Below, piece by piece: positions 19,777 through 19,994 of a stretch of DNA of 64,000 nt (within the stretch, counting starts at the first letter, position 1; each line of letters opens with the position of its first letter). The notes under the pieces are model-generated. The model was not told the DNA's origin. It was given only the letters and a program-made list of their open reading frames with translations, and searched no databases. Source of the stretch: a virus. A program made the translations under genes and the position numbers. The stretch is from positions 390,762 through 454,761 of IMG/VR virus record IMGVR_UViG_3300020429_000529; one strand, written 5' to 3'.

Positions 19777-19859
19777 TCAGCATTCAAGACGGCTCATGGA
19801 GCCGAAGGACAAGAACCATGCGTTTCAACAGCACCATCGTTTCCCTCTCTACCAAGCGG

Positions 19860-19990
19860 TATAGTCTTACCCGAATGTCGGGTACGAACACGCCGCAAGG
19901 CTTAGGGTCGCAAGACCCGTAGCGACTGAGTAGGGTGCCCCGCCTGTTTCAGTCGCGGTAAAAAGAAACACTTCGGGGCAGGGAAACTTG
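19860..19990 (+). ncRNA. structured 5' leader or small RNA upstream of the high-GC gene
   Basis: Hairpins at 19868-19884, 19892-19901 (GCAA loop), 19905-19918 (GCAA loop) and 19922-19956 (8-bp stem). The hairpin-3 loop TGCCCCG is complementary to 19973-19979, a possible pseudoknot. Confidence 0.4.
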
Positions 19991-19994
19991 CAAC

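Follow-up and report, generated by a model that had tools for sequence, protein, structure and literature searches.

The window analyzed here is a 64,000-nucleotide (nt) stretch of viral DNA (IMG/VR record IMGVR_UViG_3300020429_000529, positions 390,762 to 454,761). It comes from a marine (Tara) phage genome of about 500 kb, represented by contigs of 498,618 and 502,461 bp with the same genes. Within the window we studied a 218-bp spacer (positions 19777-19994, + strand) located between a gene for a predicted membrane protein and a gene for an uncharacterised protein of 266 amino acids (aa). A previous sequence-only reading had described the spacer as a structured RNA leader, with GNRA hairpins and a predicted pseudoknot, upstream of a foreign gene. 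We found that the + strand of the spacer is predicted to fold far better than its shuffled counterparts, and that its strongest long-range pairing engages the Shine-Dalgarno (SD) sequence of the downstream gene. This suggests that the spacer may be an intercistronic leader that sequesters the SD.

Layout of the locus

The genes and signals around the spacer, in order, are the following.

19008 to 19037, + strand: sigma-70-like promoter, TTGGCA-18-TACAAT, a 10/12 match called by consensus match alone
19087 to 19776, + strand: upstream gene, predicted membrane protein, 229 aa (232 aa from the TTG at 19078)
19777 to 19994, + strand: the 218-bp spacer between the two genes
19790 to 19804, + strand: small hairpin, 6 bp, loop AUG, directly past the stop codon
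19995 to 20795, + strand: downstream gene, 266 aa, its start codon in agreement with the homologues
20822 to 20856, + strand: intrinsic terminator, 13-bp GC-rich stem, UUCG loop and U5, ending the transcription unit

The two genes and the spacer have an operon-like layout. The promoter scan found no promoter-like site in the spacer, and no + strand terminator was found within it. No U-tract follows the spacer hairpins, the sequences behind them being GAAGGAC, CGAACAC, GUAGCGA and GGUAAAAAG, and nothing in the spacer qualifies as an intrinsic terminator or attenuator. The hairpin at 19790-19804 is likewise not an intrinsic terminator because no U-tract stands behind it. With a promoter upstream, no U-tracts in between and a terminator past the 266-aa gene, the simplest layout is a bicistronic transcript that reads through the spacer. 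This transcript would likely start at the 19008-19037 promoter, and the spacer would be its intercistronic leader. A free-standing small RNA, one of the identities offered by the sequence-only reading, is unlikely because the element has neither a promoter of its own in the spacer nor a terminator on either side.

Two annotation details concern the same transcription unit. The 20822-20856 terminator was overlooked by a simple terminator scan. In addition, the Logan and ENA gene calls place a spurious 291-aa antisense open reading frame (ORF; 19902-20777, - strand) where the real + strand gene lies. Because the public calls annotate this antisense ORF, the real 266-aa protein has one record (Tara) in the protein collection.

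The wider gene content of the window is phage-like and includes polynucleotide kinase-phosphatase, HNH and LAGLIDADG endonucleases and a 5'-nucleotidase. RtcB, polynucleotide kinase-phosphatase (Pnkp), a TilS-like PP-loop enzyme and phosphoribosyl pyrophosphate synthetase are encoded at 29321-30589, 16032-17015, 26905-27990 and 8358-9380, respectively; they form an RNA-repair and tRNA-modification toolkit that shares the 64 kb with the 266-aa gene. The window has no tRNA or tmRNA gene according to ARAGORN.

Predicted fold of the spacer and pairing of the SD

We computed all fold z-scores against dinucleotide shuffles. The + strand of the whole spacer gave a minimum free energy (MFE) of -81.7 kcal/mol (z -4.43), with none of 200 shuffles as stable, and the core at 19836-19997 gave z -4.72. 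The minus strand of the spacer reached z -2.5, and the fold is specific to the + strand because it contains six G-U pairs. Perfect inverted repeats of at least 7 nt were also in excess: the 218 nt contain 4, where 0.97 +/- 0.95 would be expected (P = 0.014). Among 18 intergenic gaps, z < -4 was reached only by this spacer and by the short terminator-bearing gap behind the same 266-aa gene. The spacer at 21936-22075, before an NT5C-like gene, has a + strand fold that also beats its shuffles (z -3.1 to -3.7).

The predicted fold is a four-way junction of about 150 nt (19839-19987), in which a helix termed P1 closes around the arms P2, P3 and P4. Its parts are listed here.

19839 to 19850, + strand: 5' strand of P1 (anti-SD), GUUUCCCU-CUCU, partner of 19975-19987
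19852 to 19900, + strand: P2, an interrupted long hairpin of 2+5+2+7 bp
19905 to 19918, + strand: P3, GGGUC-GCAA-GACCC, a GNRA-tetraloop hairpin
19922 to 19956, + strand: P4, a 9-bp stem (8 perfect bp and a G-U) with a 17-nt apical region
19957 to 19973, + strand: A-rich linker GGUAAAAAGAAACACUU, candidate loop 3 of the pseudoknot by inferred geometry
19974 to 19987, + strand: 3' strand CGGGGCAGGGAAAC, in which 19975-19987 pairs with the anti-SD or 19974-19980 with the P4 loop

Several of the hairpins noticed in the sequence-only reading recur in this fold. The one at 19868-19884 forms the tip of P2 (UACCCGA-AUG-UCGGGUA, 7 bp, loop AUG), the GCAA-loop hairpin at 19905-19918 is P3, and the hairpin at 19922-19956, described with an 8-bp stem, is P4, where one G-U adds to the 8 perfect bp. 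The GCAA hairpin proposed at 19892-19901 (GCC-GCAA-GGC) fared worse. Its stem has only 3 bp, and it is displaced in the MFE and centroid folds, where 19856-60 pairs with 19892-96; it is an alternative to the P2 base.

The earlier structural account was right about most hairpins and about a loop complementarity, but it missed the dominant anti-SD:SD helix. The strongest long-range pairing in the spacer is an 8-nt perfect complement between 19839-19846 (GUUUCCCU) and 19980-19987 (AGGGAAAC), which includes the SD. This core of P1 is prolonged by four more pairs around the bulged C19979. The SD itself is weak (AGGGA, 19980-19984, 10 nt ahead of the AUG), and GGAG- or AGGAG-type SDs are found at many other genes of the genome. 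Across four sequence contexts the P1 pairs had probabilities of 0.6-0.98, and the probability that the SD is unpaired was about 0.06 (0.01-0.09). When the 197 nt upstream were dinucleotide-shuffled and the initiation region was kept, this degree of occlusion was equalled in 2 of 400 shuffles. For comparison, the mean unpaired probability at -15 to -9 was 0.42 in 33 other genes of the window, with a value of 0.1 or less in one only. On a read-through transcript, the SD is thus predicted to be paired in a stable helix, as in the T4 e/soc/I-TevI type.

The strand asymmetry also bears on whether the element acts at the DNA level, as operator palindromes or a recombination site, or is a remnant of a group I or II intron. 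We regard this explanation as very improbable. A perfect 7-bp palindrome makes up the P2 tip, and all of P2 also fits the model on the minus strand, but the six G-U pairs and the z difference between strands favour a + strand RNA. The intron or ribozyme remnant, which the sequence-only reading had connected with adjacent homing endonucleases, draws on the HNH and LAGLIDADG genes nearby, the latter polymorphic between strains. However, these genes lie at least about 860 nt downstream, with the entire 266-aa gene and a strong terminator between them and the spacer. Both flanking ORFs are full length relative to their orthologues, the upstream one aligning through the C terminus and the downstream one starting at the family's conserved Met, and the Rfam scans gave no intron family match. 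We exclude an intron remnant because both ORFs are complete and no intron model matches.

The LAGLIDADG polymorphism is an observation of its own. The gene encodes 235 aa in the window (21160-22076) and 317 aa in the strain L268 (5075-6086), and its region cannot be aligned between the two; the flanks share 96-98.5% identity. Such a pattern suggests turnover of endonucleases in the population.

The complementarity between the P4 loop and the segment just 5' of the SD, on which the proposed pseudoknot was based, is real, with its coordinates off by one: UGCCCCG at 19936-19942 forms 7 perfect bp with CGGGGCA at 19974-19980. The P4 apical region can either fold into a 5-bp tip helix (19933-37/19941-45) or leave 19936-19942 free for this pairing. 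An H-type geometry is sterically feasible, its loops measuring 5, 6 and 17 nt with A-rich sequence in the 17-nt loop, and the pseudoknot is predicted to be compatible with a shortened P1 (19839-45/19981-87) on which it could stack. At the same time, its helix needs bases that also form the P4 tip helix and the upper four P1 pairs. The H-type pseudoknot is feasible, but the folding thermodynamics favour the four-way junction closed by the anti-SD:SD helix. In rough energies, the nested remainder (-59.8) plus the pseudoknot helix (-13.2 to -17.3 before a knot penalty) stands against a nested MFE of -68.5; because this balance is comparable, neither the nested nor the knotted state is favoured on that estimate. 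Taken alone, the pairing is not significant, since about one repeat of at least 7 nt is expected by chance. We consider the pseudoknot a possible alternative or addition to the nested fold, not an established part of it.

The existence of two overlapping pairings for 19974-19980, with similar estimated energies of the two states, and of G-U pairs and a bulge in P1 beside the SD, would suit a ligand riboswitch or an RNA thermometer that gates the SD by switching between the pseudoknot and P1. We judge this quite improbable. Riboswitches are normally widespread. Here, the riboswitch envisaged by the sequence-only reading found no Rfam class at the gathering score or at E <= 10, and the element showed no conservation past one phage lineage. 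The spacer also has no terminator/antiterminator pair, and the function of the gene suggests no ligand.

Relatives of the locus and the family of the 266-aa protein

The search for relatives of the RNA beyond its own phage population was negative. The Rfam scan that had been proposed as a check gave no match at the spacer, whether at the gathering score, at E <= 10 (19600-20200) or permissively over the whole window, and no tRNA-clan match at E <= 10. Rfam scans on the spacers of relatives, permissive E-values included, likewise matched nothing to the element, and blastn found no DNA match in 50,697 phage records. A search of IMG/VR yielded neither this phage nor its membrane-protein gene. A single-sequence covariance model of the leader (R1) returned nothing credible in 253 loci (~1.77 Mb), and no credible similar RNA at the 240 loci encoding homologues of the 266-aa protein. 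Outside the window, R1 gave a single match with E < 0.01 (18.6 bits, with a rough E of 0.007, at L024 1839-2005); it is located in a Clostridia metagenome-assembled genome, 2 kb upstream from the homologue, and is probably due to chance. The element is, as far as these comparisons indicate, lineage-specific.

Distant phages keep the synteny of the locus, with membrane-protein orthologues (39-49% identical) preceding homologues of the 266-aa protein (50-57% identical). Among themselves, the spacers of these relatives are homologous (0 of 300 shuffles did as well in the comparison of L250 with L083b), and they combine a long hairpin with a promoter-like motif (TTGCAA-N17-TAnAAT) and a leader. 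The hairpin, 25-30 bp and near-perfect, stands directly past the membrane-protein gene (L082, 5783-5875; L250, 1979-2075; L083, 5031-5125), and the conserved CTTGCAAGTG...TAnAAT promoter-like motif comes after it. L089 and L254 belong to two other phage lineages. In both, the homologue is preceded by a promoter-like site (TTGACA-N17-TATAGT) and, behind it, a leader in which a long hairpin again pairs with the SD, an observation in favour of the SD-sequestering reading.

Since relatives carry hairpins and a promoter there, the gene junction is a site of transcript-level organisation. This would fit an mRNA processing or stability element, either an RNase III/E site or a protective structure, with the SD pairing incidental. 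Comparable intercistronic hairpins are familiar from T4 and T7 (PMC3014915), the related phages have their 25-30-bp hairpins directly past the upstream gene and before a promoter, and in the window + strand-specific structure occurs on both sides of the 266-aa gene. However, no helix of the element reaches the ~20 continuous bp usual for RNase III substrates, and the SD occlusion is statistically unusual in itself. We give a processing element a small but appreciable probability.

The 266-aa protein belongs to an uncharacterised family of more than 6500 clusters without domain annotation. The motifs CGHDE-x-WF, RQGEWFF, KPH and FLD are invariant in the family, and HxDHxT is invariant at H, DH and T. 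The AlphaFold model of the protein (predicted local distance difference test score 92) had no fold match in PDB or BFVD. Its gene is GC-rich, with a GC content of 0.64 and a third-position GC content (GC3) of 0.86, against 0.68 for the neighbour. The sequence-only reading had called the gene foreign, but the homologue has GC and GC3 raised over its flanking genes in every phage relative, so that the composition belongs to the gene lineage. Because the orthologues are GC-enriched in the same syntenic position, the gene is not a recent insertion.

The bacterial members of the family point to an RNA context. Conserved neighbours are a 194-aa HNH protein (24-25 loci), RtcB (16 loci) and a Ro60/Rsr-like protein (12 loci). 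The family often lies in tRNA arrays, with 172 tRNA matches in 16 loci. Of 80 genome loci, 35 carry tRNAs within 4 kb, on average 6 and at most 33 per locus. Genuine YrlA Y RNAs occur in two loci that also contain Rsr (L004, 83.6 bits; L080, 76.7 bits). In the related phages, 2-5 tandem tRNA-Glu genes, a GluRS/GlnRS-type synthetase and EF-Ts come directly past the homologue, in the following regions.

L082, 7389 to 8011: tRNA-Glu/synthetase/EF-Ts region
L083, 7200 to 8833: tRNA-Glu/synthetase/EF-Ts region
L250, 3385 to 4202: tRNA-Glu/synthetase/EF-Ts region

No conserved structured RNA was found upstream of the bacterial homologues, whose spacers hold tRNAs, a promoter motif like that of extracytoplasmic function (ECF) sigma factors, or a small ORF. 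The ECF-sigma-promoter-like motif, GCGAACC-N16-17-CGT(G), lies ~60-110 nt upstream of the Planctomycetota homologues L006, L008, L012, L014 and L018. In Pyrinomonadaceae loci (L017, L054, L063 and others), spacers of ~215-250 nt separate a tRNA-Cys from the homologue and contain an ORF of ~40 codons with a strong AAGGAGG SD (e.g. MSRLRLFYVARVFLRAFGRRG...); no structured RNA like the window element is present in them.

Given this RNA-repair gene context, we considered whether the element is a Y RNA or a tRNA mimic. It would then be a stand-alone or processed RNA partner of the 266-aa protein, serving as a cofactor or scaffold, as a decoy, or as an autoregulatory operator whose pseudoknotted four-way junction is recognised. 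The bacterial neighbourhoods of the family, with their tRNA arrays, Rsr (Ro60), RtcB and genuine YrlA, speak for such a partner, as do the RtcB and Pnkp encoded by the phage and the closed four-way junction with its bulged closing helix. Moreover, processing of such operons yields bacterial Y RNAs, many of which bioinformatic searches miss (PMC4201824). Against this, YrlA gave no match at the gathering score, at E <= 10 (19600-20200) or at E <= 5 (whole window), and ARAGORN gave none. The GNCGAAN0-1G motif and the YrlA arms GCGGGuUCGAgaCCCGC and AGCUCA..GGUAGAGC are absent from 19777-19994, where the nearest strings are CCCGAAU and GUACGAAC. There is no Rsr gene in the 64-kb window (tblastn of bacterial Rsr, best E 0.11), and no similar RNA beside any of the 240 homologue loci. 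Because the 3' strand of the element overlaps the SD, a leader fits better than a released RNA, and we consider an RNA partner doubtful.

A model for the leader and its counterparts in known systems

Among the functions put forward by the sequence-only reading, a translational operator or cis-regulatory leader is the one that best fits the data, since a + strand-specific structure directly 5' of the start is predicted to involve the initiation region. Specifically, we hypothesize that the spacer is a lineage-specific, SD-sequestering structured intercistronic leader, a reading to which we give an even chance. Our model suggests a two-gene transcript comprising the membrane-protein gene, the spacer, the 266-aa gene and the terminator. 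In this transcript, ~150 nt of + strand RNA (19839-19987) would fold in the cell into the four-way junction, with the pyrimidine-rich anti-SD GUUUCCCUCUCU paired in the closing helix with the weak SD region GGGG-C-AGGGAAAC of the downstream gene. In addition or instead, the P4 loop may pair with the 5' half of the same 3' strand; with the pseudoknot stacked on the shortened P1, all 14 nt upstream of the spacing to the AUG would be double-stranded. The 30S subunits would be largely excluded, so that translation of the RNA-repair-associated protein would be low, or would depend on opening or removal of the 5' strand through processing, a shorter transcript, temperature or a bound factor.

Three further features of the locus were considered and not taken into the model. 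The first is an internal promoter at TATAGT (19860-19865), a -10-like motif that falls inside P2. It has no -35 and no TG extension, and GGTATAGT is found a single time in the 64 kb, a frequency not above chance. A transcript with its 5' end at 19873 would raise the unpaired probability of the SD to 0.57. The second is a leader peptide, from a 22-codon ORF (19796-19864) that runs over the anti-SD strand. This ORF has no SD and its AUG lies inside a hairpin loop, and a tblastx match to L083 (E 0.055) does not correspond to its reading frame. Because the ORF lacks an SD, translation-dependent unmasking would be speculation. The third is CGCAAG as a repeated protein-binding motif. Three copies lie within 115 nt, but the hexamer is in excess on the + strand of the genome as a whole. 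In the window we counted 86 copies against 45.6 +/- 6.5 expected (~2x), mostly on the + strand, with clusters at 12-632 and at 19894/19909/20003.

Several observations weigh against an SD-sequestering leader. The analysis turned up no trigger to open the masked SD. When the genome was scanned coarsely in 200-nt windows, 12 of 639 (1.9%), mostly coding, reached z <= -4, in a GC-rich genome whose background is itself negative (mean z -0.8). The 12 metagenomic contigs that carry the locus, all of the same phage population, are identical across the spacer and so offer no covariation evidence, and the collections searched contained no members of the lineage at 70-95% nucleotide identity. Of the findings that the sequence-only reading had named as refuting, the lack of an Rfam match was thus observed, whereas identical copies carry no information on covariation. 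One of the 12 contigs is L268, which is 1.5% divergent overall. The spacer has 0 substitutions in 218 positions relative to L268, and third codon positions of the flanking genes differ by 1.6-3.6%; this invariance is only weak evidence of constraint because the mismatch-free tract against L268 (19759-20266) extends into coding sequence. The spacers of the syntenic relatives (L082, L083, L250, L089, L254) have no detectable homology to that of the window, with MAFFT, blastn-short and Smith-Waterman comparisons against shuffles all non-significant, and the spacers of syntenic relatives gave no match to R1 either. A 17-mer, GGGTCGCAAGACCCGTAG against GGGTTGCAAGATCGTAG of L250, was examined as a sign of homology and was equalled or beaten by 74 of 500 shuffles. 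Finally, L252/L253 joins both genes without a spacer, and for this reason the element is not needed for the gene pair.

Some of these observations would also be expected of a functionless, lineage-specific leftover, such as a decayed promoter or leader region like that of relatives, whose GC-rich sequence folds well by accident. The element is an orphan, one relative lacks the spacer, a whole ORF has been inserted there in another, about 2% of genome windows fold as well, and one 7-nt complement is expected by chance. However, several independent excesses coincide in the spacer (z -4.7, inverted repeats at P = 0.014, SD occlusion in 2 of 400 shuffles and strand asymmetry), it has no substitutions relative to L268, and no other long spacer of the window has z < -4. 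We consider a functionless spacer unlikely, with a probability that is minor yet worth counting.

If the SD-sequestering reading is true, the locus would be one more case of a large phage restraining translation by placing a ribosome-binding site (RBS) in a long-range helix. This would be conceptually familiar and useful for annotating gene regulation in megaphages. A tightly masked start would fit a protein with tRNA or RNA activity that needs limits or timing, and the protein family behind the leader is a more promising lead than the RNA itself.

H-type pseudoknots at an RBS act as translational operators, for example in T4 gene 32 and E. coli S15. The window element resembles them in the complementarity between a hairpin loop and the bases immediately 5' of the SD. 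It differs in that the loop pairing competes with the P4 tip and P1, with a net energy that is not clearly better, and no binding protein is known for it. In RNA thermometers (ROSE, fourU), the SD is paired with a pyrimidine-rich strand in a helix weakened by G-U pairs and a bulge. P1 shares the pyrimidine-rich strand on the SD, the G-U pairs and the bulge. Unlike thermometers, P1 encloses a large domain and contains 8 perfect pairs, including four G-C or C-G pairs, and the element has no family signature and no temperature link.

With bacterial Y RNAs (YrlA, RF02553) the element has in common a structured RNA of ~110-150 nt between genes of RNA-repair loci, a closing stem formed from the 5' and 3' ends and a multi-arm distal domain. 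YrlA is defined by the GNCGAAN0-1G Rsr-binding motif near the 5' end (PMC4201824), together with tRNA-like T- and D-arms. The window element, unlike YrlA, has no covariance-model match, motif or T-/D-arms, the window encodes no Rsr, and the 3' strand of the element is the RBS of the next gene.

That last property is shared with the T4 genes e (lysozyme), soc, 49 and I-TevI, whose initiation regions are sequestered in hairpins (PMC3014915). In T4 the hairpin is simple and local, and a late promoter inside the region of the 5' strand yields an unmasked transcript (PMC3014915). The two strands in the window are instead 133 nt apart and enclose three hairpins, and the only -10-like motif between them (TATAGT) lacks a -35 or TG and does not recur in the window. 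As in T4, the setting is intercistronic in a large, lytic-type phage genome. As for e, soc, 49 and I-TevI, the SD and/or AUG would be paired with an upstream segment on the read-through transcript, which is predicted here, too, to lower 30S binding.

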